Source of the DNA: a bacterium
GTDB lineage: Bacteria > SAR324 > NAC60-12
DNA length: 64,000 bases
NCBI GenBank assembly: GCA_965233585.1
Contig: CBDDTI010000729.1
Span: forward strand, 72,080-136,079
Direction: 5' to 3'
Numbering within the stretch: the stretch's first letter is position 1; each line of letters begins with the position of its first letter. Below are positions 5,931 through 49,513 of the stretch, one piece after another. A program made the position numbers and the translations under genes. The notes under the pieces are model-generated. The model was not told where the DNA came from and searched no databases. It was given only the letters and a program-made list of their open reading frames with translations.

Positions 5931-5994
5931 CTTTACCTTTCAATTTAAAATTCAAAAAACTTGAGTATAGCATTTTTTGACAAAAGAAAAAAAC

Positions 5995-6249
5995 AGATTG
6001 CGGGTCAAGCCCGCAATGACGAATGGTCAAGGTGAGCAATGACCAAAAAACAAGCCCACAGGTGAGAAAGTGAGGAATGGGAAAAAGAGAAAGATTGCGG
6101 GTCAAGGTGAGCAATGACTTAAGCACAAGCCCGCAATGACAGTTCTGAAGATGAGTAAATTCCTCTGTCATTCCGTGCTTGATACGGAATCTCAAAAAAT
6201 AAGAGTTGTTTGGGAAAAAGAGAGATTGCGGGTCAAGGTGAGCAATGAC
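5995..6249. repeat. Cluster of REP/RPE-like palindromes
   Basis: GATTGCGGGTCAAGCCCGCAATGAC, GATTGCGGGTCAAGGTGAGCAATGAC (x2) and GTCATTCCGTGCTTGATACGGAATCTC. Confidence 0.8.
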
Positions 6250-6327
6250 GCAGGTGACGAAAAGGGAGCAGAACGCCCCCTTTTTTTAAACAAATGAGAG
6301 GTAGGAAGGAAAAAGAAACGAAAACGT

Positions 6328-20071: not shown

Positions 20072-23000
20072 TCATAGTAAATTCAGTTGATTGATACAGA
20101 CCGAAAATGCTGTCAAGTTTCCAATGGCATTACTTTGGATTTGTTCTATTGCAGAAAAGTAAGCATGAAGGGGAGTTCCAAAGTCTTCAAGAGCTTTGGC
20201 TCTCACGACTTCAGCATCAACATTGTCTAATCCTTTAGGCTTCCATTCTTTGATAAAATATTGGGTGAGGTCGCTTTTACGTAGATGAAGATTTTGCAAC
20301 AAAATTTCTTGCTGTGCAATCTCCCAATCACTGCGGAGCTTCATGCTGGTCAGTTGCGTTTCAATCCATTGCAGTTTGAAGGTATGGTCAATGAGATACG
20401 AGGCTTGAAGGGCTAAGTCAAAAGAAATCTCTTGTTCAAAATGCAGATAGAGAGCATCAGGCAGTGTTGTAATGGATTCAAAAATCGCAATGGTTTGCGC
20501 TGTCTGCTCATCAAAGCCGAGGTCTTGCCAACCTTTGATAATGCTGTCCTCAATGTTTTTCAAAAGTTCAGTCTTCGCTTGCTTCCAAAACTTCAAATAG
20601 TTAGAAACCTCTTGAAACTGGAATTGTTGTTGATGTTGAAGAAACGAAATGGTGGCTTGCCTTAAAAAATTTTCAGAGTGAATCAATGCACGATATTTGT
20701 CAAGCACAAAAGTTTCAGATTGCAGGATAGTATAGCGGTATTGAGTCATGTCAAAAGAGGCATCAAGGAACAAATAAATTGAGGCAATTTGTTCAGCAGA
20801 GGCTTGCGTGACGCTTTGCACGTAGTAAAAGAAAGTCATACCTGCTTGATTGACAATTTGGTTGACAACGATTGCACAAGTGATCTCCCTTCTCAAAGGG
20901 TGAAAGGGCAGAGAGTCTGCAAATTTGTTAAGCAAGGTTTGGGGAAAGTAATTTTGATAAAACGTCTTGAGAAAGTCATGGTCAAGGATTTTGGAATGTT
21001 CTAATTCGTTGCAAATGTTCATTTTGACGTAGGCTTGTAAGATAGCTAGCACAGGTCTCGGAATAGATTCTTGACGTTCTTCCATACGTTCCAGTTCTCC
21101 GCGTGTTGGGATTTTTTCACTTTCTGCATCTAAATTTTGTTTTGCTACCAAATAACGGGTCAGATTTTTAAAGTTCCGAAATTCTGTTTTGGTGCGATGT
21201 TCGTCCATAGAAAGCAAGCGATGCTGTGCGCGATTGTTGGCTAAGACTAAATTTGAGACCTCATCTGTTGCTTCACGCAAAGTGGCATTGCGGTCTTCAA
21301 GAGATTCTAACTTGCCTTGCTGTAATAATTGCTGCAACAAAACCTTGATGTTGACTTCATAATCAGACATGTTCACACCTGCAGAATTGTCAATGGCATC
21401 AGTATTTCCACGCCCTCCTTGTTTGGCAAATTGAATACGTGCAGGTTGAGTCATACCAAGATTTGCACCTTCTCCAATCACTTTGACTTGGCATTGACTG
21501 ACATCAATCCGAGTCAAATTATTAGCATGGTCTCCCACGTCTGCATGAGTTTGGTCATCAGATTTGATGTAAGTGCCAACACCTCCAAACCAGAGTAAAT
21601 CTGCTGGCATTTTTAGAATCGCACAAATCAACTCCTCACCTGTCATCGTTTTCACTTGGACGCCAAGCATTTTTTGGACTTCAGGAGACAACGTCACTTC
21701 CTTCGCATTGCGTTCAAAGATACCTCCCCCTTGACTAATCAGTTGAGTTTGGTAATCGTTCCAACCAGAACGAGGCTTGTGAAAGAGTCGCTGACGTTCC
21801 TGCCATGATTCTTGAGCATTGGGAGTGGGGTCAAGAAAAATATGTTTATGATTAAATGCGGCAACCAACAAAATCTGCTGACTTAGAAGCATTCCGTTGC
21901 CAAAAACATCGCCAGACATGTCGCCTACACCAATGACAGTAGAAGGTTCGTTTTGAATATCTCTGCCCATTTCTGCAAAATGTAATTTGACACATTCCCA
22001 CGCTCCGCGTGCGGTAATGCCTTCTTTTTTATGGTCATATCCAACAGAGCCACCAGAGGCAAAGGCATCTCCTAGCCAAAACTCATAATGTTCTGCTTCT
22101 GCATTGCCAAAATCAGAAAAAGTAGCCGTGCCTTTGTCAGCGGCAACGACAAGATAGGGGTCATAGTCATCGTAGCAAATCACATGGTTTGGGTGTTTGG
22201 GCAGTCGGTTAAAATCCAAATTATCTGTAATATCCAGAAGAGACCGAATGAAACGTTGATACTGTCGTTGTCCTTCTTGCGGAAGTTCGGCTGCACTCAC
22301 CTTTTTTTTCACAATAAATCCACCTTTTGAACCATTGGGAATGATGACGACGTTTTTAGTTTGTTGAGTTTGGACAAGATTCAAGACTTCAGAACGGAAG
22401 TCATTATGTCGGTCAGACCATCGCAAGCCTCCTCTTGCTACTGCACCAAAACGCAAATGAACGCCTTCTACTGTGGAATCATAGACATAGATTTCACGAT
22501 AAGGCACAGGAGAAGGAATGTTTTCAAGAGAACGGAGGCACAATTTGACCGAAAGAAAGGTCTCGTTAGCATCAGTTTTGGGAATATAAAAATTGGTTCG
22601 CAACGTGGCTGAAATGAGTTCAAACAGTCGTCTAAAAATGGCGTCTGTGACTACTTCCTTCACATTGCGCAGGCTGTCTATAAATTCTTTTTCTAATTCA
22701 GGCAAAAGCGAGCTTTGACGATAATCCTTCGTGCCAAAAGAAGTTTCGCAAGAAAACTTGGTCTCAAAATATTGAAAGATTTTTAAAGTGTGTTGAGGAT
22801 ATGCCAACAAGGCAGTGTTGATTTGGTCAATGCTATAAGGTTGTTTCAGTTGGAAGTATAAATTGCGATACATCACCACCACACGGATTGCCTCCCATGA
22901 CATTTCTGCCAACAAACAAAGAGCATTGAGTGGGTCATTTTCAACACGACCGAGCAAAGCGGCTTTGAGTAAATCAGTAAACAAAACCTTGTAGCGATTC

Positions 23001-24832
23001 ACATCTAACGTTTGCCTTTGCATGTCTTGAATCCGAAACGTCATCACGTAGCCAATGGTTTGGTCTGATGTGCCAATCCTTGCATTGAGTTGGTCTAAAA
23101 CATAAATTCCCATATTTTGAATGATAGGCATGACCTGTGTCAGATTGATTTTGCCTTTGCAATAGATATAAAGCAAAGTCGTCTGTTCAGAAAGGGCAGA
23201 ACCTGTGAAAACAAAAGGTTTCATGTTGAATAAGAATTCTTCACCACTTGTGAGTTGTTCAAGGTAAAAAATATCTTCTGCGGCATCTTCGGGGCTGGTT
23301 CTGCTTCTGTAATGACTTGGGAGCCAAGGCAGATACTTTGTGGCTCGTTCGTAAAGTCCTGTTGAAAACTTTTGATGAATGAAATCAATCGTCAAAGATT
23401 CCCACGACTTCAAGGCATCGTTCAAATCTTTGAGGATTTTATCTAGGTCTGGTCTCCATTTACCGTTGAGGTCAAAATAGATATGAAGCCATTGAGTTTG
23501 AACACTGCGAATGGTGAGGAGTTCATAATCCTGATGAGGAATTTGTGATTTAAGATAGTTGAGAGTTTTTTCAACATTGACTCGGTTGAAGATGTCAGTA
23601 GGCAAAACAATCAAAAGACAAACCGATTGCCTTTCAGGAAAAGGATAAAAGAAGGCACGGATTTCATTGGGATTGTAGATTAAAAGTAGGTCTTCAATCA
23701 TACGTGCAAGCGTTTGTTGTGGAAGCCAAAACAGCTCAAACTTGGGAATCACACTGCTTAAACGAATGGTCTGGTTGTAGCTGTAGCTTGAAGGAATCAT
23801 ACGAAATTGCTCAAAAATCTTTTGCAGTTTCAGATGAATGATTGGAGTCTCTAAATTGCTAGCATGTAAAGAACTTCTGCGAATCAAGCCAACAAAGACA
23901 AAGTGTTGATGAGAACGACTTGAAGATTGAAAACGCAAGCAGATTAATTTTTCTGCACTTTGAACAGGGCTGATGGCAGAGAGGTTTTCAAAAGCAAAGG
24001 GTTCTTGATCCCTGCCCTTCCATAAATCTGCCACAAGTTTTTGGTCAAGGTGGGTCTTGTCTTTTTGCAAATGATCACTGGCAAGCAATCCAAGTCCTGA
24101 TTCTTTGTCTAGCGATGGCTTTTGATTAGGTTCAAATTGGACTTCAACATATCCCAAAAAGTGAAAGTGTTGACGTTCAAGCCAGCCAATTAAGTCAATC
24201 CATTCTTGCTTAGGATGTTCTGATTGAACATCTCCAGACTCAATTTCTGCTTTGACCATAGCAGTTTTGGATTGAATTTGTTTTAAATCTCTTGCCACAC
24301 ACTCCACAGCGTTTAAGTGCTGTTGAATGGTGAGTTTGAGGTTGTCCAAATCAATGCCATCTATTCGGTCTAATTCCAAATAAATGCAACAATAGCTTTC
24401 TTGTCCTTCTGATTGAGGTAGAACATTGACCAAGACTTGATTTTTAATCACTACTCCTAAAATAGGATTGAGCCGAAAGACAATGCTGATTCCCAGATTT
24501 CGCAACATCATTTCCAGAGTCATTAGCAAATGCAACATATCTGGGTAGATGAGTTCCAGTGCAATCTTTTCTGAAAGAACAGGCTTAAAAAAGCGAAAGT
24601 CTCCTTTTTGTTTGACAGATTCTTCAAAAAAACTATGACGTTCACGCATGAACTTCATCAGTTCCACATCACTATAATTTTCTAAAGCTCTCTCTGGGAC
24701 GCTTTTCATGTAAGCATGAGAAAAGGCACAAAAAAGTGTGTCTTCGCAAGACTCCAAAAATTTTGAAAACTTTTCTTCTGCACTTTCTACACCCTGAATG
24801 TTGGGATTGTTCTGAATCATAAGGCACTCCAA
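20072..24832 (-). CDS. Large NAD-specific glutamate dehydrogenase
   Basis: RGGLRWSDR, VVAADKGTATFSD, GDMSGDVFGNG, EGANLG, DNSAGV; 1586 aa. Confidence 0.93.
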   Translation of the reverse strand: MECLMIQNNPNIQGVESAEEKFSKFLESCEDTLFCAFSHAYMKSVPERALENYSDVELMKFMRERHSFFEESVKQKGDFRFFKPVLSEKIALELIYPDMLHLLMTLEMMLRNLGISIVFRLNPILGVVIKNQVLVNVLPQSEGQESYCCIYLELDRIDGIDLDNLKLTIQQHLNAVECVARDLKQIQSKTAMVKAEIESGDVQSEHPKQEWIDLIGWLERQHFHFLGYVEVQFEPNQKPSLDKESGLGLLASDHLQKDKTHLDQKLVADLWKGRDQEPFAFENLSAISPVQSAEKLICLRFQSSSRSHQHFVFVGLIRRSSLHASNLETPIIHLKLQKIFEQFRMIPSSYSYNQTIRLSSVIPKFELFWLPQQTLARMIEDLLLIYNPNEIRAFFYPFPERQSVCLLIVLPTDIFNRVNVEKTLNYLKSQIPHQDYELLTIRSVQTQWLHIYFDLNGKWRPDLDKILKDLNDALKSWESLTIDFIHQKFSTGLYERATKYLPWLPSHYRSRTSPEDAAEDIFYLEQLTSGEEFLFNMKPFVFTGSALSEQTTLLYIYCKGKINLTQVMPIIQNMGIYVLDQLNARIGTSDQTIGYVMTFRIQDMQRQTLDVNRYKVLFTDLLKAALLGRVENDPLNALCLLAEMSWEAIRVVVMYRNLYFQLKQPYSIDQINTALLAYPQHTLKIFQYFETKFSCETSFGTKDYRQSSLLPELEKEFIDSLRNVKEVVTDAIFRRLFELISATLRTNFYIPKTDANETFLSVKLCLRSLENIPSPVPYREIYVYDSTVEGVHLRFGAVARGGLRWSDRHNDFRSEVLNLVQTQQTKNVVIIPNGSKGGFIVKKKVSAAELPQEGQRQYQRFIRSLLDITDNLDFNRLPKHPNHVICYDDYDPYLVVAADKGTATFSDFGNAEAEHYEFWLGDAFASGGSVGYDHKKEGITARGAWECVKLHFAEMGRDIQNEPSTVIGVGDMSGDVFGNGMLLSQQILLVAAFNHKHIFLDPTPNAQESWQERQRLFHKPRSGWNDYQTQLISQGGGIFERNAKEVTLSPEVQKMLGVQVKTMTGEELICAILKMPADLLWFGGVGTYIKSDDQTHADVGDHANNLTRIDVSQCQVKVIGEGANLGMTQPARIQFAKQGGRGNTDAIDNSAGVNMSDYEVNIKVLLQQLLQQGKLESLEDRNATLREATDEVSNLVLANNRAQHRLLSMDEHRTKTEFRNFKNLTRYLVAKQNLDAESEKIPTRGELERMEERQESIPRPVLAILQAYVKMNICNELEHSKILDHDFLKTFYQNYFPQTLLNKFADSLPFHPLRREITCAIVVNQIVNQAGMTFFYYVQSVTQASAEQIASIYLFLDASFDMTQYRYTILQSETFVLDKYRALIHSENFLRQATISFLQHQQQFQFQEVSNYLKFWKQAKTELLKNIEDSIIKGWQDLGFDEQTAQTIAIFESITTLPDALYLHFEQEISFDLALQASYLIDHTFKLQWIETQLTSMKLRSDWEIAQQEILLQNLHLRKSDLTQYFIKEWKPKGLDNVDAEVVRAKALEDFGTPLHAYFSAIEQIQSNAIGNLTAFSVCINQLNLL

Positions 24833-25039
24833 TAGGATAGATAAAAAACCACCCTGCTAGGTTACACGATTTTCTGAAAAATCAAAGGTTTTTCTCAAAA
24901 AAAGTAAAAAAACTACCCTGAGCGAAGAGGTGAGCTGATTAAGAGTTGGAGAACTGTTGGAGAGATTCGTTGGAAGGTTAGGGAACTAAAGACGTGTGAG
25001 GCACATTTTTAGAACCCTAATTTTTTGAGATGGTAGGAG

Positions 25040-25285
25040 TTATTGACGAGGTCGTGCTTTATTGACTTTCAGATTCCTTCCTTTGACGTTGCGTTCGTTC
25101 AGATTATCAATCGCCGTTTGAGCCTCTGACTCTTGCGGCATTTCAACAAACCCAAATCCTTTAGAACGTCCAGAATAGCGGTCTGTAATCAGATGGACTT
25201 CTGACACTTCCCCAAACTCTGCAAAGAGGTCTCTTAATTCGTTTTCACTGACGGTGTATGGCAAGTTGCCTGCGTAGATATTCAT
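25040..25285 (-). CDS. RRM (RNP-1) RNA-binding protein
   Basis: MNIYAGNLPY, SKGFGFVEM, LKVNKARPR. Confidence 0.92.
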   Translation of the reverse strand: MNIYAGNLPYTVSENELRDLFAEFGEVSEVHLITDRYSGRSKGFGFVEMPQESEAQTAIDNLNERNVKGRNLKVNKARPRQ

Positions 25286-25493
25286 AATATAATCCTTAAA
25301 AATGAGAAACACGTTTTTCAAAAAAACCTTCAACAACAAACGTGCAATATTGCTAAAAGCCAATCTTTAAATTCTAAAAAAAGTGTGTTTTTTTGTCAAA
25401 CTTTTTTTGACAAAAAATTTTTAATTTTTTAGATTCAGGTCATTTTTCTAATGAAGACAGCCCATTGTACAATAGTTTGGACAAGTGTTGAAG

Positions 25494-27560: not shown

Positions 27561-29850
<2,290 letters not shown>

Positions 29851-29857
29851 TCTTTTC

Positions 29858-29944
29858 CATCAGGTAGTGAGTGATGCAAAGGCGCCAGGGGTTAATGATA
29901 TTAACGCCGATATGAAGAGTTAACCGACTTCCCGCTACCTGATG
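29858..29944 (+). ncRNA. Structured tRNA-like small RNA, unit 1
   Basis: 12-bp closing stem CATCAGGTAGTG/CGCTACCTGATG; 87-nt repeat of 30087-30173. Confidence 0.65.
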
Positions 29945-29967
29945 CCCTTCAATTTTCCGCTTAATCG

Positions 29968-29996
29968 TTGACAAGATTTCTTCAGTGTTCTACACT
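29968..29996 (+). promoter_or_regulatory. Sigma70-type promoter upstream of the intervening hairpin and RNA unit 2
   Basis: TTGACA-17 nt-TACACT. Confidence 0.7.
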
Positions 29997-30086
29997 GACT
30001 CCTAGCTTCTCTGTTGTAGATGCAATCAAGATAATCAGGTTTTGGCTTGTGGCTTCAGTGCCGCCTGACTTGGTTATCTTCTTTTT

Positions 30087-30173
30087 CATCAGGTAGTGAG
30101 TGATGCAAAGGCGCCAGGGCGAGATAATTTCAAAGCCGATATTGGGAACTAACCGACCCTCCGCTACCTGATG
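30087..30173 (+). ncRNA. Structured tRNA-like small RNA, unit 2
   Basis: Same scaffold as unit 1 with variable 15-nt, 7-nt and 3-nt segments; overlaps the stop of the antisense ORF. Confidence 0.65.
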
Positions 30174-30472
30174 CTCTTTAAAACACCTTCTTTTAATTTA
30201 TCCTCAATATCTTTTAAATCTACCTTAAAAGCTGTTTTAACGCTTTGGGAAAAGACCTCTTTCTCTTTAAAATTAGGGTGAATGATCACTTTAATCACTT
30301 TGTCATTTTTGAGCTTTCTGATGAACAATAGATTGCTATCTTTTTTTTGCAAATAGACTGCATCAGGGTTGGCAAGAATGTCAGGCAGCTGCATCCATTC
30401 TTCAGGAGACAAGGCATTTTGAGACTTGGCATGACGTGCTGCTTTTGTGCCAGAAAACAAAGAAGATTCCAA
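30164..30472 (-). CDS. PBECR (Barnase/EndoU/ColicinE5-D/RelE-like) nuclease-fold protein, possibly 5'-truncated by IS1
   Basis: RH...LSPEEWMQLPDILANPDAVY...NLLF...KVII...VKTAFKV resembles MuF C-terminal PBECR domains; frame open upstream to 30517. Confidence 0.6.
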   Translation of the reverse strand: MESSLFSGTKAARHAKSQNALSPEEWMQLPDILANPDAVYLQKKDSNLLFIRKLKNDKVIKVIIHPNFKEKEVFSQSVKTAFKVDLKDIEDKLKEGVLKSIR

Positions 30473-30509
30473 GACAATAGGCTCATCAAGAACACACCCC
30501 GTCCCGTTG

Positions 30510-31150
30510 GGCAGTGTTCACTTGGTGTTGCTATTGGATGTAAGAGTGAATTTGAGGAATGGGGATGAGAAGTTGTCATCATTGTGGGAGTCAGACTTAC
30601 ATCAAGAATGGAAGTTGCAAAGGAGTGCAGAGATATGTTTGCAAATCATGTGGGAGGTCGTTCAGTTCAAATGGGTTGAGAATCCCACTAGAGACGAAGC
30701 GTCAAGCTTTAGAAATGTATGTCAATAGTGTAGGCATCAGAAAGATAGATCGTTTTGTAAAAAGCCAAAGAGTAGCTGTTTGGACAGCCTATTCTCGTCA
30801 AGAACAATGTGTGATTGCCTTTGTGATAGGCAAAGGATTAGCAGCAGCAAAGCAGCTGTATGCACTAGTCAAAGCACAACGAGCTAGAATTGAAACGATT
30901 TATACAGATGCCAACTCATGCTATCAAGTGGCATTTGCTCAATGACAGATTCCAGAGAACCATGAAATCGGTAAAAAAAGACTCATCTCATTGAATCTTC
31001 TAATTCTTCCATCAGAGATAACCTAGCTCGTTTTATGAGAAAATCAAAACGACATTCTAAAACTTTGGACATGCTGGAACACTCTCTCAAACTCTTCTTT
31101 CACTATAAAAGACTTGAAAAATATCATGCCAACAACAAGTGAACACTCCG
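30510..31150 (+). mobile_element. Degenerate IS1-family element
   Basis: Terminal IRs GGCAGTGTTCACTTGGTGTTG and CAACAACAAGTGAACACTCCG; InsA zinc ribbon (CHHC...QRYVCKSC) joined through an internal deletion to InsB (VWTAY, YTDANSCY), then a stop; no target duplication seen. Confidence 0.88.
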
Positions 31151-31604
31151 TGTGAAAATAGGGGCAGGAATCCAGTCATGTAAGAATCTGTGCTTGGTTT
31201 AAGATGGATTCCGTGTCAAGCACAGAATGACTAACAGATTGCAGACTTGTTTTTTGGTCATTGCTCACCTTGTTCCGCAATCTCTCTTTTGTTTTTTGAG
31301 ATTCCGTGTCAAGCACGGAATGACGGCTTGCTCTTTTTCTCATTCCCCTGTCATTGCTCACCTTGTTCCGCAATCTCTATACAACCGTTATTGCGGGCTT
31401 GACCCGCAATCTCTTTCTTTTTCCCAGCTTCTTCATTTTCCCAAACAATTCTTGTTTTTTGAGATTCCGTGTCAAACACGGAATAACAACTATTGTCATT
31501 CGGAGCGAAAGAACGTCCCCCCTGTGAAAACAGGAGCAGGAATCCAGTCACGTATAGGAATCCATGCTTGGTTTAAGATAGATTCTGCATCAAGTGCGGA
31601 ATGA
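31151..31604. repeat. Cluster of REP/RPE-like palindromes with an ~80-bp direct duplication
   Basis: GATTCCGTGTCAAGCACGGAATGAC-type, GTCATTGCTCACCTTGTTCCGCAATCTC (x2) and ATTGCGGGCTTGACCCGCAATCTC; 31151-31230 resembles 31524-31604. Confidence 0.85.
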
Positions 31605-31713
31605 TTCAGTGCGGTTTGCAGGATTGAGTTTGAAAATCAGTCAGAATTTTGACAAAATCAATTCTTTAGAAAACTTTTGATTCAAAAATTTTTTGAAAAT
31701 TGGGGTTGTCTGA

Positions 31714-33273
31714 ATGATCATGATGAAGTCTCTATCTTGTCAAATATGGGTTTTGGTTGCCGCTTTTATTTTCTTTTGCAGTCCTCTTTCTGCCTCTAAA
31801 ATTGCAGTTCTGACTCCTGAAATTACCTACACAACTCGTTCTTTGAGCTGGTTGAGCCTCTTTTTGCAAGAACAAATTGAACTAGCATTGCAGCAGCAAG
31901 ACCTTGCAGTCATGCCTTCTGAAGTTTTGAGATATTGGGAGGCTAGAGTGACAAATCCACAACAGCTTTTCCAACTTACTCAAACTTCGTCTATTCTCAA
32001 AATTGAGTTTCAGACGGTGCTTAATCAGATTTCAATCAGTGCCAGCTTGATTCAAAAAAGCCAAAAGGTAACAGATTTGGCAGAACATGAATTTGAATGG
32101 AGGAGACCCCGTGATTTTTTGGGGCAAACGTTTAAAACTCTCAAATTCTCAAGGTTTGACGCCACACAAGCAAGGATTGCTCAACTGGGGAACTGGAAGG
32201 AATTGGAGGAGTTTTATCGTTGGAAGCAAAAAGCACCTGTTGGCAACTGGAATCAAGAAATCTTGCAACTGGAAGCCATGGCAACGACGCCTGCTGCTGC
32301 TTTAGAACTGGCATCAGTGCAACTTTTGCAGTATTGGCAAACACGAGACCCGCAGATGTTAGAAGCCTTGCAAACACAGATTGCAAAAGGGTTGTCATCT
32401 CATCAGTATGCCAGTCATTATCATGCTCTTGCCTCACAACTCAACTACATTTTGGGTCGCATGAGTGAGTCAAAAACTGATGCGATTGTGGCACGTTCTA
32501 AAAACAAACAAAATTTGATAGCCAATGCCATGTATGGAGTCAATGTAGGCATCAAACATCACGAGGGCAGACGTTTCATCCGTTCTGCAATAGAGCAATT
32601 TCCGCCACTCATACAACCTGAATACTTTCAACAACACAAATTGCCACAATATGAAATCCTTTCAAATCTTATCAAAGAAGCATGGGCTGATGTTTTTAAT
32701 CTACGGGAGTATCTTCAAATCACTTATCAAGCGAGGCAGGCTATCAAGCGGCAACAATGGTACGAAGCCTCACAGCTTTTTTATCAAGCACTTCAGCTGA
32801 TTCCCAATGAAATAGAATCGTTGATTGGTGTTGCCCAAACCTTGATTGGAGCAGGTCAATATTCTGATGCACTGTCTTATCTTGAAAGGCTGGAGCAACA
32901 ATTTTTAGACCACCCTACCATTTTGATTTACAAAGCATTAGTTTTTGAAAGATTAAATGAAGTGGTCAAAGCCAAACGTCTGTATCAACAAATTCTTGGC
33001 ACAGACCCCAAAAATTTTCAGGCATTACTGCGTTTAAGTGCATTACTCACCATCACACAAAACTACCAAGAAGCCGAGACGTTTTTGAAAACTTTGACTG
33101 TTTTTTACCCCCAATCACTCAAAGCATGGAAGGAGTTAGGTCTTGTTTATTGGAGGCAAGGCAACAAAGCAGAAGCTAAGAAGACATGGCAACAAGGCTT
33201 ACTTTTAAAGCCTGATGACCCGACTCTCAAAGATTATTTACAAAGATTGCAATCTGAAACCTCAAATCAATAA
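31714..33273 (+). CDS. Secreted TPR-repeat protein
   Basis: Signal peptide; C-terminal TPRs (AWKELGLVYWRQGNKAEA...LKPDD). Confidence 0.8.
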   Translation: MIMMKSLSCQIWVLVAAFIFFCSPLSASKIAVLTPEITYTTRSLSWLSLFLQEQIELALQQQDLAVMPSEVLRYWEARVTNPQQLFQLTQTSSILKIEFQTVLNQISISASLIQKSQKVTDLAEHEFEWRRPRDFLGQTFKTLKFSRFDATQARIAQLGNWKELEEFYRWKQKAPVGNWNQEILQLEAMATTPAAALELASVQLLQYWQTRDPQMLEALQTQIAKGLSSHQYASHYHALASQLNYILGRMSESKTDAIVARSKNKQNLIANAMYGVNVGIKHHEGRRFIRSAIEQFPPLIQPEYFQQHKLPQYEILSNLIKEAWADVFNLREYLQITYQARQAIKRQQWYEASQLFYQALQLIPNEIESLIGVAQTLIGAGQYSDALSYLERLEQQFLDHPTILIYKALVFERLNEVVKAKRLYQQILGTDPKNFQALLRLSALLTITQNYQEAETFLKTLTVFYPQSLKAWKELGLVYWRQGNKAEAKKTWQQGLLLKPDDPTLKDYLQRLQSETSNQ

Positions 33274-43835: not shown

Positions 43836-44303
43836 CAGTTTATGCGTGAGAAGCTAAACCCAGAATCATAACAAATTTTAAGACAAAATGGAAAGAGGCA
43901 GGTTGTCAAGAGGTTAGTCCAAAATTTCTCCTTAATTGAATTAATTTTTCTGGATCAGATCTAAAAAGCGATTTTTCTGTTACTTCCAACAGCCTTTCAC
44001 TTTCTTTTATTTTTTAGGTTGGTTTTCAATTTTATCAATATTATCATCTACCAATTCCCTTAATACGATAAAAGCATTTTTATAGATGGGTTGCCATTTA
44101 TCATCCAATGGATTGACTATGCTATGAAAAAGTATATTTCTAAGTTCATACACAAACTTTACGAACCATTTCAGTTCTGCTAATTTTTTATTGTCATTTG
44201 GTTTTGTGTAATTTTTATAAGGTAATGGCTCAAATAAATTTTCTATTGCAAAATTACTTCTTATGCGCTGAAAACAAGTTGTTATCGCTTGATTAAAATT
44301 ATT

Positions 44304-45063
44304 GGTATTGTTAAACTATAAGTGATATGCGATATTAAGTTCATTTAATTGAATTGATAGTCATGGTGTAGCAATGAAGTTGTGTCCTAGATGTGAAAGT
44401 GAGAAGACGGTTAAGAATGGTTTCTTATATGGTAAACCGAGGAGGCGTTGCAATGCCTGCAACTATCAATATACCAAGTCCTATCGTGGCCAAATCTCAC
44501 CACAGATCAAAAGAAGAGCATTAGAGTTGTATTTGGAGGGTCTTGGTTTCAGGTCAATCGGTCGTTTGCTGAATTGTTCTCATGTTTCAGTTTATAATTG
44601 GGTCTGTAGTTTTGGCGAACAGCTCAAGGCATTAAGAAAGGACACAGACATTGAAATTATGGAAATTGATGAAATGCACACCTACATCCAGTCAAAAAAA
44701 ACTACTGCTGGCTCTGGATTGCTGTTGATAGATGTGGGAAGCAATTTATCAATTGTGTGCTTGGAAACAGAGACTCAAAAGCCTGTAGGCATTTATGGGA
44801 CAAGGTCAAGGAAACAAAACCTCTTCAGGTGATGACTGATCACTGCAAGGCTTACAAACAAGTCATTCCCAAAGAAATTCATACATGTTCCAAGGCAGAA
44901 ACATACACGATAGAAGGGTATAATTCTCTCTTGAGACATTTCTTGGCAAGAATGAGAAGGAAAACCAAATGTTACAGCAAGTCTCTTAAAGCATTACAAT
45001 ATTCTGTTCTTTTGTTCATGGCAAAACGGAATAATCAGCTATCACTTATTACTTAACAATGCC
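44304..45063 (+). mobile_element. Intact IS1-family element (760 bp)
   Basis: IRs GGTATTGTTAAACTATAAGTGATA and TATCACTTATTACTTAACAATGCC; 8-bp target duplication AAATTATT at 44296-44303 and 45064-45071. Confidence 0.95.
44374..45056 (+). CDS. IS1 transposase InsAB, -1 programmed frameshift at A8C (44694-44702)
   Basis: InsA CPRC...CNAC plus HTH; the -1 frame reads NYCWLWIAVDR...MTDH...IEGYNS. Confidence 0.9.
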
Positions 45064-45675
45064 AAATTATTTTCTGCTTTCTCTTTTTGTTTTTTAGTAA
45101 GCGGTTTGTATATTTCAGTTAAATTATTTTCTACATTTTCTTTTAATTGGTCTAAAATATCATCTTTGTTGTAATTGTTATTGCTTATAAATTTATCAAT
45201 AGAAATTTTACCCGTCAAAAAATATTTTTTACTGTTTTTTAATAGTGTCTCTGTTTCTTTTCTATTGTCTTTAATTTCTATATACAAAATTTTATCATTT
45301 TTATTTTCTTTATCTTTTCCAATTTTGATTTCATAGCTAAATTTATTTTTCCTGTTTTGGATTTCTTGCTTTTGCTTAAATTCCTCATTTAATCTATAAA
45401 AAGTATAAAAATGGTATTTCTTTAATTTTTCATCGTTTAATATCAATTTATTAGATGCTTTGTGTATATCACAAATACATTGATAAATGTCTTCGTTTGT
45501 ATTAGCTGGAATTGCTATGTTTTTAACTGCTTCTTTGATAAGTTTCCCATCTCCTGAATTAATATCAACATCTTTGTATAATTCGTGTAAGGTTGATAAA
45601 TAAGCAAACCAAGATTTGATGTACAATGAAAAATAATCTACATCAATAGACTGTCGCCAATTTTGATATTTAGCT

Positions 45676-47088
45676 TCACTCATTGCTTTGTTGCTCTATA
45701 AACTCCAGCCCCGCATCTTCTCCCTCCTCAATCGCCACCTCCACCGCTTGCTTGGCTACTTCCAACAATCTTTCGCTTTCTTTTTTGAGGGCAAAACTTT
45801 GTTCTATTTTTTTGGCGGTTTGGGTTTGGGTTTCTTTTTTGATGATGGGAAGTATAAAATTTTCTATATCTTCATTTCTTATTTTAGGCTGACCCGTTTG
45901 AGTTTTATATTTATTTATTTGTTCTTGAAACAATAACGAATGCAACAATACTTCAAAAAACAAAGGATTAAAAGTATTGCCTAATAAACATAATTTAGAT
46001 GTATTATTTGATATAAAACTATGATTTAGTTCTTTAGGTATCCTATTAGATTTTCCTATAGTATCTCCTATTGTAGCAATGATAAACTCATTTTCTTGAA
46101 CAATAGTTTCATTTGTATGAATAAATTTATCATCAATATAAATAATTTGTTCTTGGTTTATAAATCCACTTTTTGATAATTCTTTAATTCTAATATAAGC
46201 CCTTTTTGAGTCTTCAACATAATACTCTTTATCTATCAAAGAACCATTACTAATTTTTGATATTTCACCTAACTTCAAATATCCATTTGAATAAGATTTT
46301 ATCTTTTTCTCTAATTCCTCATACTTCGGCTGATAATATTCCGCATCCAATCTACCACTGGTGCCAAAACTTTCGCTAAAATTTTTAACGCTTACTTTTT
46401 CTTGTGATGGGGTAAAATCCTTTAGTCCCACTTCTTCCAACAACAACGCTTCAGCTTCACGGTAGAGGGTTTTAGAAGTGTCTAATTTGTGATGAGCTTG
46501 TTTGACTAATTTTTCTATTTGGAGTTGGAAGGTTTGAGAAAAAAGAGGAATCTTTACATTCAAAACATCATGATCGGTAATGGCAGGATACATTGTTGCC
46601 GTATTTTCTCTCATCATTTTAGTTGTGAAAAATTTTGTTTTTAGAAAAGAATACACAAAATAGGGATTGATTAATTTTTTATCAATTCTTAAAACAGCAA
46701 AGCCACTTGTACCCACCAAGCGTTTAGAATTTCTTATAAAAGCAACAGCATTTCTATTAGGTCTAACCGTAGATACAACAATATCATTTTCTTTTAAACA
46801 GTAAGTTGCTCTATCTGGAATAGTAGAACAATCTATAACTTCTGTTGTATAATCTAAACCTTTTAAATGTACTCCAGATATGGACAAATAGTTAAAATCT
46901 TTTTTGAGTTTTAAAGATTTTATATTGATAACAGTTTCCTTTTTTAGATAAATCCTTAATGGTTTCCCTTGTAAGTAGTTTTCATTATTAAGCAAGAATT
47001 TTAAATAATATTCACTATCTAACCTATTCCTGTAGCTTTGTTGATAAGTTTGAAAATCAATAATACTTATTTCCAGCCCCTCCAACAA
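45676..47088 (-). CDS. Restriction-modification specificity (S) subunit, two TRDs
   Basis: RLDSEYY and RLDAEYY repeats, TMYPAI and TGQPKI, helical spacers. Confidence 0.85.
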   Translation of the reverse strand: MLEGLEISIIDFQTYQQSYRNRLDSEYYLKFLLNNENYLQGKPLRIYLKKETVINIKSLKLKKDFNYLSISGVHLKGLDYTTEVIDCSTIPDRATYCLKENDIVVSTVRPNRNAVAFIRNSKRLVGTSGFAVLRIDKKLINPYFVYSFLKTKFFTTKMMRENTATMYPAITDHDVLNVKIPLFSQTFQLQIEKLVKQAHHKLDTSKTLYREAEALLLEEVGLKDFTPSQEKVSVKNFSESFGTSGRLDAEYYQPKYEELEKKIKSYSNGYLKLGEISKISNGSLIDKEYYVEDSKRAYIRIKELSKSGFINQEQIIYIDDKFIHTNETIVQENEFIIATIGDTIGKSNRIPKELNHSFISNNTSKLCLLGNTFNPLFFEVLLHSLLFQEQINKYKTQTGQPKIRNEDIENFILPIIKKETQTQTAKKIEQSFALKKESERLLEVAKQAVEVAIEEGEDAGLEFIEQQSNE

Positions 47089-47117
47089 AGCCTGATATTT
47101 GGCATCATCAAAGGGGC

Positions 47118-49184
47118 TTAATACTTTCCCACATTTTCATTCCTCCTTTTGTAAAGGGGGCTAGGGGGATTTTTATCTCTGCTTTGTGGGCTTTGCCAAA
47201 AACTCAAATTTTCCTTTTTGGAAAATTCAATGAAGGCTTCAGCGATGCCATCTTGGGTTTGTCCTTCGTGATTAAAGAGGTCATGTTTGACGATTTTATG
47301 CCCGTGTTGGTCTAATTGGTCTAATCCATCTGAACGTTTGACAAAGATTTTATCGCCGCTGTTGTCTTTGCTGGGTTCTTGTTGAGTAGCAAAAAAGATG
47401 GGGTAATCGTCTTTTTTAGGACAAAGTGTTTCGTCCCATTTTTGCACAAACAACACGCTGGTTTTGGTGCCTGTATGGGGTTTGAAGACATTGCCATGCA
47501 AACCGACTACGGCAAGTATTCGGCATCGTTCGGCTATGTAATCTCTGATTCTTTTATCGCTGGAGTTATTAAAACGTCCTTGTGGTAAAACGATTGCCAT
47601 GCGTCCGCCATCTTTTAGAAAGTTAAGATTGCGTTCTATGAACAAAATATCTCGCCCGACTTTGTTTTCATATTTGCCGTTTTCCTTTTTGCCCAAATCA
47701 TACAGGCTAAACAAATCGCTTTCTTTGATGTCTCCTGCAAACGGTGGATTTGCCATGAGAAGATCAAAGTTAAAATCGCGGTTGCTTTGCTTGCTGTTTC
47801 GTATCCTTTTTAGTTTTCTCCAACCTTCATAGTAAGTATCAATCCAATCCTCTTCTTTTTGAGTTTCGTCCCATCTTTTGTAATCCAAAGTATTCAAATG
47901 CAAGACATTGGTTTGTCCATCTCCTGCAATGAGGTTTAACGTTCGTGCAACGCGTACTGCTTTTCTGTCAAAATCAATGGCAAACACTTTGTCTGCTACA
48001 TAATCCATACATTCTGCTGGTTTTTTCTCTGTTGTGAACAGGTGGCTTTTGGAAAGTCCTTTCTCTTTTAAAATCTGCTCCCAGACATAAAACATGGCAT
48101 GCACAGGAAAGCCACAACTGCCTGCGGCGGTGTCAATGATGGTCTCTTCTTTTTGTGGATTGAGCATTTTAACGCACATGTCAATGACGTAACGTGGGGT
48201 AAAATATTGACCTTTCTCGCCTTTGCTACTTTGGTTCATCAGATACTCAAAGGCTTCATCTACCACATCTAAATTAGAGTTAAAGAGTTTGACATTTTGC
48301 AAAGATGACACACAAACTGACAAGTGAGAAGTGGTCAGGTTGATTTTATCATCAGGGTTAAACACACTTTGCCATTTTCTCTTTGCCTTATCAAAAAGCC
48401 CTTGTATTTTTTGTTTAAGCTCGGTTTGGGTATCGCCATAATTCCTAAACTGCAAATGACGTTTTTCGTCCCGTCCGCTTTCCATTTCATCATAAAGTTT
48501 GGTAAAGATGAGCTTAAAGCATTCTTCAAAAGCATCTACTCCTGCATTTGCCAAAACCTCATCTTCCATTTCTTCAATGAGGTCTTTCAACGATTTACGT
48601 TCTTTGACTAATTTGTCCTCTCGTTCCAAATCTTTCCAAGTCCAACGTTCGGTGAGAATGTCAGACAGCTTTTCAGTGGCTTTGGGCAGGCTTGTCAGGT
48701 CTTCAAAATAATTGGGGTCTTTGCGGTGATAAAAAGAGATTTGCTCGCCATTTGTCCAAACGGCAATCGGTGAACCTGTGGCATTGCAGTAGCTTTTAAG
48801 CTGGTCTTTTCCATCTCTGAGCTTGGGCTGTTTCACTTCTACAATGATATAAGGATCGGTGGGTCTGTCCTTGTCAAAGATGACAATATCAGCTCTTTTG
48901 ATTTCTCTGCCAAAATGCACGGGATATTCGCATTGCATGCGTTCAAAAGGGTATTGGTAACCTTCATTTAAAATGATGAGATAAAGCTGTCTGATGACTT
49001 CTTCGGGGGTGAGTTTGATGTCTTTCTTTCTGACCAAGCATTCAACATGGGGAATTTCTTCACCTTTTTTGTTGGGTTTGCTGAATATCTTACTTTCTAA
49101 ACGTGGAATGACGTATTCAAAGCCTTCTTCAGAAAATTGCTCTAGGCTGTAATTAGAATCTTTTAAAATGTCTGTCAGTTTCAT
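47118..49184 (-). CDS. Fused endonuclease (HsdR_N-like) and N6-adenine methyltransferase
   Basis: PEEVIRQ, RADIV...VEVK nuclease motif; GQYFTP, AAGSCGF, NPPF. Confidence 0.9.
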   Translation of the reverse strand: MKLTDILKDSNYSLEQFSEEGFEYVIPRLESKIFSKPNKKGEEIPHVECLVRKKDIKLTPEEVIRQLYLIILNEGYQYPFERMQCEYPVHFGREIKRADIVIFDKDRPTDPYIIVEVKQPKLRDGKDQLKSYCNATGSPIAVWTNGEQISFYHRKDPNYFEDLTSLPKATEKLSDILTERWTWKDLEREDKLVKERKSLKDLIEEMEDEVLANAGVDAFEECFKLIFTKLYDEMESGRDEKRHLQFRNYGDTQTELKQKIQGLFDKAKRKWQSVFNPDDKINLTTSHLSVCVSSLQNVKLFNSNLDVVDEAFEYLMNQSSKGEKGQYFTPRYVIDMCVKMLNPQKEETIIDTAAGSCGFPVHAMFYVWEQILKEKGLSKSHLFTTEKKPAECMDYVADKVFAIDFDRKAVRVARTLNLIAGDGQTNVLHLNTLDYKRWDETQKEEDWIDTYYEGWRKLKRIRNSKQSNRDFNFDLLMANPPFAGDIKESDLFSLYDLGKKENGKYENKVGRDILFIERNLNFLKDGGRMAIVLPQGRFNNSSDKRIRDYIAERCRILAVVGLHGNVFKPHTGTKTSVLFVQKWDETLCPKKDDYPIFFATQQEPSKDNSGDKIFVKRSDGLDQLDQHGHKIVKHDLFNHEGQTQDGIAEAFIEFSKKENLSFWQSPQSRDKNPPSPLYKRRNENVGKY

Positions 49185-49305
49185 GGTCAGATTTGGGGTT
49201 TATTTTCAAGATTTTCCACTTGGCAGCGGTGAGGAAATGATGTACCTTTTTCATAGTTTGTTGTTTGGTGAATGACTTTGAAAAAGACTTTTGAATCAGG
49301 AGGAA

Positions 49306-49379
49306 TGCACCCGGGAGGACTTGAACCTCCAACCTTTGGATTCGAAGTCCACTGCTCTATCCGATTAAGCTACGGGTGC
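49306..49379 (-). tRNA. tRNA-Arg(UCG)
   Basis: Cloverleaf GCACCCG...CGGGTGC-A, anticodon loop CTTCGAA, T-loop TTCAAGT; CCA not encoded. Confidence 0.93.
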
Positions 49380-49393
49380 TTGGAGGAGAAATC

Positions 49394-49470
49394 TGGGGCA
49401 AGCAAAGGGACTTGAACCCTCGACCACTGGAATCACAATCCAGCGCTCTACCAACTGAGCTATGCCTGCC
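49394..49470 (-). tRNA. tRNA-His(GUG)
   Basis: G-1, anticodon loop TTGTGAT, encoded CCA. Confidence 0.95.
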
Positions 49471-49484
49471 AAACAAAACTGGAC

Positions 49485-49513
49485 ATTCTATGCTAACTCA
49501 ACCTAATTGACAA
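49485..49513 (-). promoter_or_regulatory. Sigma70 promoter of the tRNA pair
   Basis: TTGTCA-17 nt-TAGAAT on the minus strand. Confidence 0.6.

Follow-up and report, generated by a model that had tools for sequence, protein, structure and literature searches.

Two tandem units with paired ends between ligA and a phage head-gene fragment: candidate small RNA genes or palindromic DNA repeat

Within the 64-kb stretch of DNA that was analyzed here (64,000 nucleotides, in the following called the window), two similar units of 87 nt lie one behind the other between the gene of a DNA ligase and the remnant of a phage gene. What these units are is the question raised by this locus. An initial annotation had regarded them as RNAs with a cloverleaf-like fold that mimic tRNA and whose structure is under selection. 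Our analysis leads us to prefer, at a probability of about 0.38, another reading, according to which the units would be two paralogous small non-coding RNA genes of approximately 87–95 nt that are encoded on the plus strand and originated by tandem duplication. The main rival to this reading is a palindromic DNA repeat.

The two units were aligned without gaps and share 71 of 87 positions. A 28-mer from their 5′ block occurred exactly twice in the window (0.00 occurrences expected). We built a covariance model, R1, from both units and searched the window with all filters switched off, which revealed no copy besides units 1 and 2; the next match on other sequence scored 11 bits, and the reverse strands of the two units themselves scored 21 and 18 bits. 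The differences between the units were distributed unevenly. Identical in both units were the 5′ 33 nt, the 3′ 13 nt and two internal blocks of 8 nt each (GCCGATAT and TAACCGAC), and the 16 differences formed three patches (columns 34–48, 57–63, and 72–74) with a near-random identity of 7/15, 2/7, and 0/3, respectively. As an identical run of 33 nt has a probability of P = 0.003 if 16 differences are placed randomly, this uneven divergence likely stems from constraint of some kind, from gene conversion or from a mosaic origin. Perfect blocks between near-random patches suggest constraint on the units, which is in line with RNA genes and would be unexpected in a decaying palindromic repeat. Hence, the earlier view that the units are not the product of a neutral duplication agrees with the clustering of the differences, but it found no support in the part that concerned selection on the proposed fold (see below). 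We also found no coding signal. According to a reading of the frames, the differences between the units do not accumulate at third codon positions. A 54-aa open reading frame (ORF) on the minus strand over unit 1 had no real homolog; of its four weak HMMER matches, the two that were inspected were unrelated tandem-repeat translations and the other two were long proteins. No candidate homolog of a 59-aa minus-strand frame over the same unit was retrieved from protein collections.

Table 1 Features in and around the duplicated module. Positions refer to the window.
Feature	Position	Strand	Description
ligA, NAD-dependent DNA ligase	27783–29825	+	Pfam adenylation, OB, HhH, and BRCT domains
Repeat X	29796–29836	+	41 nt, 76% identity with X′, no gaps; includes the P1 −35 hexamer
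Hairpin across the ligA stop	29818–29839	+	9-bp stem, 4-nt loop; −14.2 kcal/mol, z = −4.7, 0/200 shuffles
P1, promoter-like	29822–29850	+	TTGACA-17-TAACCT; 9/12 consensus; 7 nt upstream of unit 1
Unit 1	29858–29944	+	87 nt; gapless alignment with unit 2; model R1 111.5 bits
Repeat X′	29935–29975	+	3′ end of unit 1 and trailing sequence; carries the −35 hexamer of P2
P2, promoter-like	29968–29996	+	TTGACA-17-TACACT; 10/12 consensus
Terminator-like hairpin	30028–30086	+	14 bp (30028–30041 with 30067–30080), then CTTTTT; between P2 and unit 2
Unit 2	30087–30173	+	87 nt; gapless alignment with unit 1; model R1 113.5 bits
MuF-C/PBECR fragment of a Mu-like phage minor head protein	30164–30517	−	Pfam MuF_C E = 1e-9; stop-to-stop frame
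Degraded IS1-family element	30513–31147	+	18-bp inverted ends, 94% complementary; outside the units

The duplication is not confined to the units. A repeat family (D1) of 111 nt was detected at a spacing of 229 nt, and the flanks of the units were duplicated too, comprising 16 nt upstream, approximately 10 nt downstream, and the repeats X and X′ (Table 1). A 21-mer of X/X′ had two matches in the window, with 0.01 being expected, and a shorter X-type copy is located downstream of unit 2. Because the flanks were duplicated along with the units, we conclude that the locus underwent a segmental duplication and did not receive two independent insertions. This supports the interpretation as RNA genes, in which a whole module consisting of promoter, RNA, and trailing sequence would have been duplicated in tandem, and is at odds with the independent insertion of a palindromic repeat.

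Both modules contain, on the plus strand, a TTGACA hexamer followed at a distance of 17 nt by a −10-like hexamer (P1 and P2), and the position of P1 immediately in front of unit 1 favors the RNA-gene reading. A sigma-70-type promoter (TTGTCA-17-TAGAAT) at the tRNA-His operon shows this promoter type to be in use in the organism. Such sites are uncommon in the window: both strands taken together, only 21 promoter-like sites matched the consensus at 10 or more of 12 positions, and a perfect TTGACA with an acceptable −10 hexamer occurred at no more than 17 sites. The alignment of P1 and P2 is ambiguous. The −35 hexamer of P1 shares bases with the ligA stop codon and doubles as one arm of the hairpin spanning this stop, so that TTGACA may owe its presence to the hairpin, which weakens P1 as an argument for RNA genes.

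Module 2 differs from module 1 by approximately 84 extra nt between P2 and unit 2, which include the terminator-like hairpin. A third, degenerate unit in this 84-nt leader was considered and rejected, as the best local alignment was a 7-mer that was equaled in 225 and 234 of 500 shuffles. The hairpin at 30028–30080 was far more stable on the plus strand (−24.3 kcal/mol, z = −4.7) than on the minus strand (−14.2 kcal/mol, z = −2.2), and on the plus strand the hairpins run into T-rich tracts; both features point to the plus strand as the one that is transcribed. Directly downstream of unit 1 or unit 2 no intrinsic terminator was found, which speaks against RNA genes, as does the position of unit 2, which lies 84 nt past P2, directly behind the terminator-like hairpin, and has no good −35 hexamer nearby. 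Judging from this arrangement, P2 may drive a separate hairpin RNA of approximately 84 nt, in which case transcription might extend to unit 2 only by read-through. The succession of the strong promoter-like site P2, approximately 30 nt, the strand-asymmetric 14-bp hairpin, and CTTTTT (29968–30086) is built like an independent small RNA gene of approximately 84 nt.

The array occupies exactly the space between two convergent 3′ ends, amid mobile-DNA debris and short palindromic repeats, and the duplicated module overlaps the stop codons of both ligA and the truncated Mu-like phage head gene. On the ligA side, the last ~9 codons and the stop fall inside repeat X. The closest relative of the encoded LigA (P0003) shared 82% identity and the next relatives, some of them named SAR324, at most 51%. 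As the C-terminal tail of P0003 differs from the LigA of the window from the start of X onward, the end of ligA has evidently been overwritten by the array; the displaced original tail was not found in 29701–31800. The PF03119 zinc finger was not detected by Pfam in this LigA and is also missing from the precomputed domain list of the 82% relative, whereas nearly all other LigA matches carry it. A few kb upstream of ligA, the minus strand encodes a 1586-aa NAD-specific glutamate dehydrogenase and a 107-aa RNA-binding protein with a single RRM (20072–25363).

On the other side, the stop codon TAG of the MuF fragment is the reverse complement of CTA in the closing strand of unit 2. In a tblastn search against phages and plasmids the MuF-C ORF had no phage match and one plasmid match, where it aligned with the C-terminus of a protein named “phage minor head protein” that is encoded in the head module of a Mu-like prophage. 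No unit was found by R1 in the stretch of head genes of this prophage that was searched. The 5′ side of the fragment was cut off by the IS1-family element, and no other phage gene was identified beside it. The transposase of this element was recognized by NCBIfam with E = 1e-19, below the cutoff, and is split over two frames (30559–30945 and 30975–31142). A second IS1-family transposase ORF is located at 44374–44832. The region from 44000 to 49500 has a low GC content (0.31–0.34), is situated directly beside the tRNA-His/tRNA-Arg pair, and contains an IS1 transposase as well as genes matching subunits of methylation-associated defense or type I restriction-modification systems; it is probably an island that was inserted beside the tRNA genes.

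Such a mobile-DNA graveyard, in which palindromic repeats accompany the truncated phage gene and the degraded IS1 element, counts against RNA genes, and IS1 elements and prophage debris adjoining the units are in line with a palindromic DNA repeat (REP-, ERIC- or MITE-like). The units would then be 87-bp imperfect palindromes with 12-bp inverted ends between convergent genes and would not encode a dedicated RNA; at most, they would provide a 3′-end hairpin that stabilizes or ends the flanking transcripts. The convergent 3′ ends on both sides fit this reading, with X supplying the tail and stop of ligA and unit 2 the stop of the MuF fragment, and so does the occurrence, in several places of the genome, of further families of short palindromic repeats. 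Clusters of such repeats, belonging to several families, were observed at 5980–6260 and 31176–31604, with 21-mers arranged around a central TCAAG/CTTGA, and the families are found again in two or more intergenic regions. One palindromic family has a 16-nt stretch in common with the hairpin spanning the ligA stop (88% complementary). The units themselves, in contrast, are present as two adjacent copies and nowhere else in the 64 kb, whereas the other short palindromic repeats of the genome recur in the window, a difference that favors RNA genes. Neither a target-site duplication nor a direct repeat abuts the 12-bp ends. A MITE of the neighboring IS1 was rejected as an identity of the units, as their inverted ends are unlike those of this element. 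Weighing these points, we regard a palindromic repeat as a serious contender, albeit a doubtful one.

The fold on which the earlier interpretation was built was reexamined pair by pair. Its closing helix of 12 pairs exists in both units (columns 1–12 with 76–87) and contains GGTAGTG/CGCTACC; at the DNA level it corresponds to 12-bp inverted ends, of which 11/12 pairs are Watson–Crick pairs. Its pairing probability was predicted to be ~0.9–1.0, apart from the innermost pair of unit 2 with 0.72. One U·G pair in this helix would be an A·C mismatch on the minus strand, which argues for the plus strand. Together with the inner arms, the predicted plus-strand fold is a four-way junction in which pairing between the 5′ and 3′ ends closes the molecule. 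A small hairpin, UGCAAAGGCG, was predicted in both units with a probability of 0.3–0.9. The variable segment of unit 1 contains, as previously described, a 6-bp hairpin (GTTAAT-GAT-ATTAAC), located inside the pairs G31–C51 and G32–C50, and that of unit 2 pairs only in another register. The GGC/GCC helix said to enclose this segment could be confirmed for unit 2, but in unit 1 GG/CC is followed by a G·G mismatch.

Arm 3, which lies beside the closing stem and had been compared to a T-arm, consists of 3–4 bp around a 10-nt loop. Its pairs 58–73 and 59–72 indeed change from A-U in unit 1 to G-C in unit 2, pair 60–71 does not change, and both units have the conserved loop portion TAACCGA, as had been stated. 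However, the outer pair 57–74 is G-C in unit 1 and U·U in unit 2, and the helix given as TGGG/CCCT therefore has only 3 bp around its 10-nt loop. The pairing probability of this arm was 0.14–0.18 in unit 1 and ≤0.08 in unit 2, and the minimum-energy RNA folds of the single units did not use it in either case. The RNAalifold consensus of both units includes the pairs 58–60 with 71–73, and a fold of unit 1 with DNA parameters includes 57–60 with 71–74. For arm 2 the base-pair probability was ≤0.01 in unit 2. The weak prediction of both arms (≤0.18 for arm 3) counts against RNA genes, and their inconsistency from one prediction to the other is compatible with a palindromic repeat, as is the fact that the most robust feature is a symmetric terminal inverted repeat and that both strands fold about equally well. 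In terms of these predictions, the robust part of the fold is the terminal inverted repeat only.

In the plus-strand model with its 23 pairs, 20 pairs are invariant, two covary, and one is broken between the two sequences. This degree of covariation was reached in 106 of 500 shuffles. When both bases of an A-U pair are replaced, 4 of the 9 possible outcomes pair again, and two compensatory pairs obtained from two sequences therefore carry little weight. Thus, the repeat and the closing helix exceed what is expected by chance and the covariation does not, and we could not uphold the notion that the structure is under selection. Should the units be palindromic repeats only, they would be ordinary and would illustrate how easily two compensatory-looking changes are mistaken for selection on a fold. 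The RNAalifold analysis that had been suggested as a check gave a divided result for the two units: the consensus did pick the covarying pairs, but the minus strand scored equally well. The consensus fold of the plus strand had z = −3.08, with 5 of 1000 column shuffles being as stable, compared to z = −3.35 and 1 of 1000 for the minus strand. Hence, the energetics do not settle the strand, and the absence of homologs that would extend the covariation analysis beyond two sequences is a further point against the RNA-gene reading.

These values raise the possibility that the minus strand is the functional one and that the units are structured 3′ untranslated elements behind the MuF-like gene. The corresponding model is a three-way junction, in which a 6-bp helix pairs two conserved hexamers and the variable positions reside in loops. 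All of its 23 pairs are invariant, five of them being G·U pairs, and all 16 variable positions are unpaired. These five G·U pairs also count against the reading as plus-strand RNA genes. The central 6-bp helix, however, had a predicted probability of 0.74 in unit 1 and of just 0.05 in unit 2, the sole promoter-like site on the minus strand falls inside unit 1, and the gene upstream is a truncated pseudogene fragment. In addition, the A·C mismatch in the closing helix and the neighboring hairpin favor the plus strand. On balance, we consider a function of the minus strand improbable.

The resemblance to tRNA was assessed by sequence and structure searches. ARAGORN detected only tRNA-Arg and tRNA-His (49306–49469) in the whole window and no gene in 29700–30300 at the default and 80% thresholds; at a threshold of 60%, five predictions were obtained for this segment, none of which coincided with the units. 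No Rfam family matched the units at the gathering score, and no tRNA or tRNA-like family was matched at E values up to 10, neither by the 701-nt segment nor by each unit alone, consistent with the expectation that a canonical tRNA match would be lacking. The matches obtained at E up to 10 were at chance level and consisted of eukaryotic miRNA, lncRNA, and snoRNA models. As already noted in the initial annotation, the units have no CCA end, the 3′ flanks being CCCTTC in unit 1 and CTCTTT in unit 2, and the canonical D and T loops are absent, since no signature of either loop was recognized in comparison with the consensus sequences. Furthermore, the closing helix has 12 bp instead of the 7 bp of a tRNA acceptor stem, and an anticodon-type loop of 7 nt is missing, the middle arm having a 3-nt loop in unit 1 and an irregular shape in unit 2.

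A mimic under selection would take the place of tRNA at some tRNA-binding enzyme, for instance the neighboring protein with a BECR-class nuclease fold. The domain class of the adjacent MuF-C/PBECR ORF is described as predicted RNases with a fold that includes colicins E5 and D; the domain terminates MuF head proteins, and an RNase or RNA-binding fold is predicted for it (PMC5512222). This neighbor, the predicted four-way junction with paired ends, and the two compensatory pairs in the arm beside the closing stem are what such a mimic could be based on. They are opposed by the insignificant covariation, the negative ARAGORN and Rfam searches, and the structural differences listed above, and the neighboring ORF is a truncated head-protein fragment that is convergent with the units. 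The claim of a tRNA mimic was thus not borne out, and we rate it as very improbable. What the units share with tRNA is a closed multi-branch fold only, and the label should be dropped under either main reading.

Relatives of the units were searched for in several ways. A single scan of a collection of genome contigs with a 17-mer of the invariant block yielded 70 loci, which is close to the estimated chance number; other unit motifs occurred in 0/70, the highest 5′ flank identity was 8/15, and the highest R1 score was 21 bits. Positions 29780–30480 had no match in a blastn search (distant mode) against phages and plasmids, and the 17-mer was absent from the searchable full-text literature. Because the lineage is barely sampled according to LigA (82% identity for the closest relative, then ≤51%), missing homologs say little. 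As for guide-like targets, the variable segments of the units had no complement in the window at up to three mismatches. Several established element types were rejected as identities of the units. Integron attC sites were dismissed as no AAC/GTT core sites were seen by eye at the unit ends in comparison with the consensus. No reverse transcriptase that would point to a retron or a DGR was detected in the domain scans of 56 ORFs, and the differences between the units are not adenine-specific. Box C/D RNAs, hammerhead ribozymes, and known riboswitches were discarded based on the lack of Rfam matches and on inspection by eye against their consensus features.

Returning to the preferred reading of paired small RNA genes, we infer from the features described above that the units are transcribed from the plus strand into RNAs that have the inner fold of the model and some function. 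Each RNA would be a closed multi-branch molecule whose ends are joined in a stable 12-bp helix. Its functional core would comprise the invariant 5′ 33 nt, with one helix strand, the junction, and the UGCAAAGGCG hairpin, in addition to the blocks GCCGAUAU and UAACCGAC. Most likely, this core would act as a protein-binding scaffold, and the two inner arms would tolerate replacement. As real RNA genes, the units would represent a structured RNA not yet assigned to any class, from a lineage of which hardly any relatives have been sequenced, and an example of how an RNA gene array can overwrite the 3′ ends of both neighboring genes. A bolder version, which we find quite improbable, is that they are the first representatives of an undescribed class of small closed-junction RNAs on mobile DNA, which would combine an invariant scaffold (closing helix, junction, and small hairpin) with two replaceable specificity arms and occur as tandem copies each with its own promoter. 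Members of this class could be a decoy or partner for a phage-borne RNase-fold protein, or a guide-like molecule. Identical blocks beside saturated patches, the lack of an Rfam match, and the barely sampled deep lineage leave room for this idea.

Comparison with known systems places the units between several types of elements. With tRNA and tRNA-like modules (RF00005) they share a closed multi-branch fold, paired ends, and a similar length (87 nt), but they escape detection by ARAGORN and Rfam, have a 12-bp helix, and lack an anticodon-type loop, CCA, and the T and D signatures. Bacterial Y RNAs have tRNA-like domains; no Ro/Rsr-type gene was found in the Pfam and NCBIfam scans of the 56 ORFs of the window. 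Type III toxin-antitoxin systems of the ToxI type also feature repeated structured RNA units beside a gene with an RNase-type fold. Here, in contrast, the 87-nt units lie 142 nt apart and do not form a series of short repeats joined head to tail, their orientation is convergent with that of the gene, which they do not precede on its own strand, and the gene is a truncated head-protein fragment. REP/BIME, ERIC, and Correia-type elements resemble the units as imperfect palindromes of ~90 bp between convergent genes that overlap 3′ ends and provide stop codons, but the units consist of two copies side by side with co-duplicated flanks, without target duplication and with none else in the 64 kb. 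PrrF1/PrrF2 and OmrA/OmrB are tandem paralogous small regulatory RNAs. Unlike in these pairs, neither unit is followed by a Rho-independent terminator, the 12-bp helix ties up the conserved 5′ end, which is thus not free as a seed, and unit 2 is parted from its promoter by the terminator-like hairpin; nevertheless, like PrrF1/PrrF2 and OmrA/OmrB, the units are adjacent paralogs on the same strand behind promoter-like sites, with identical ends and a diverged interior.
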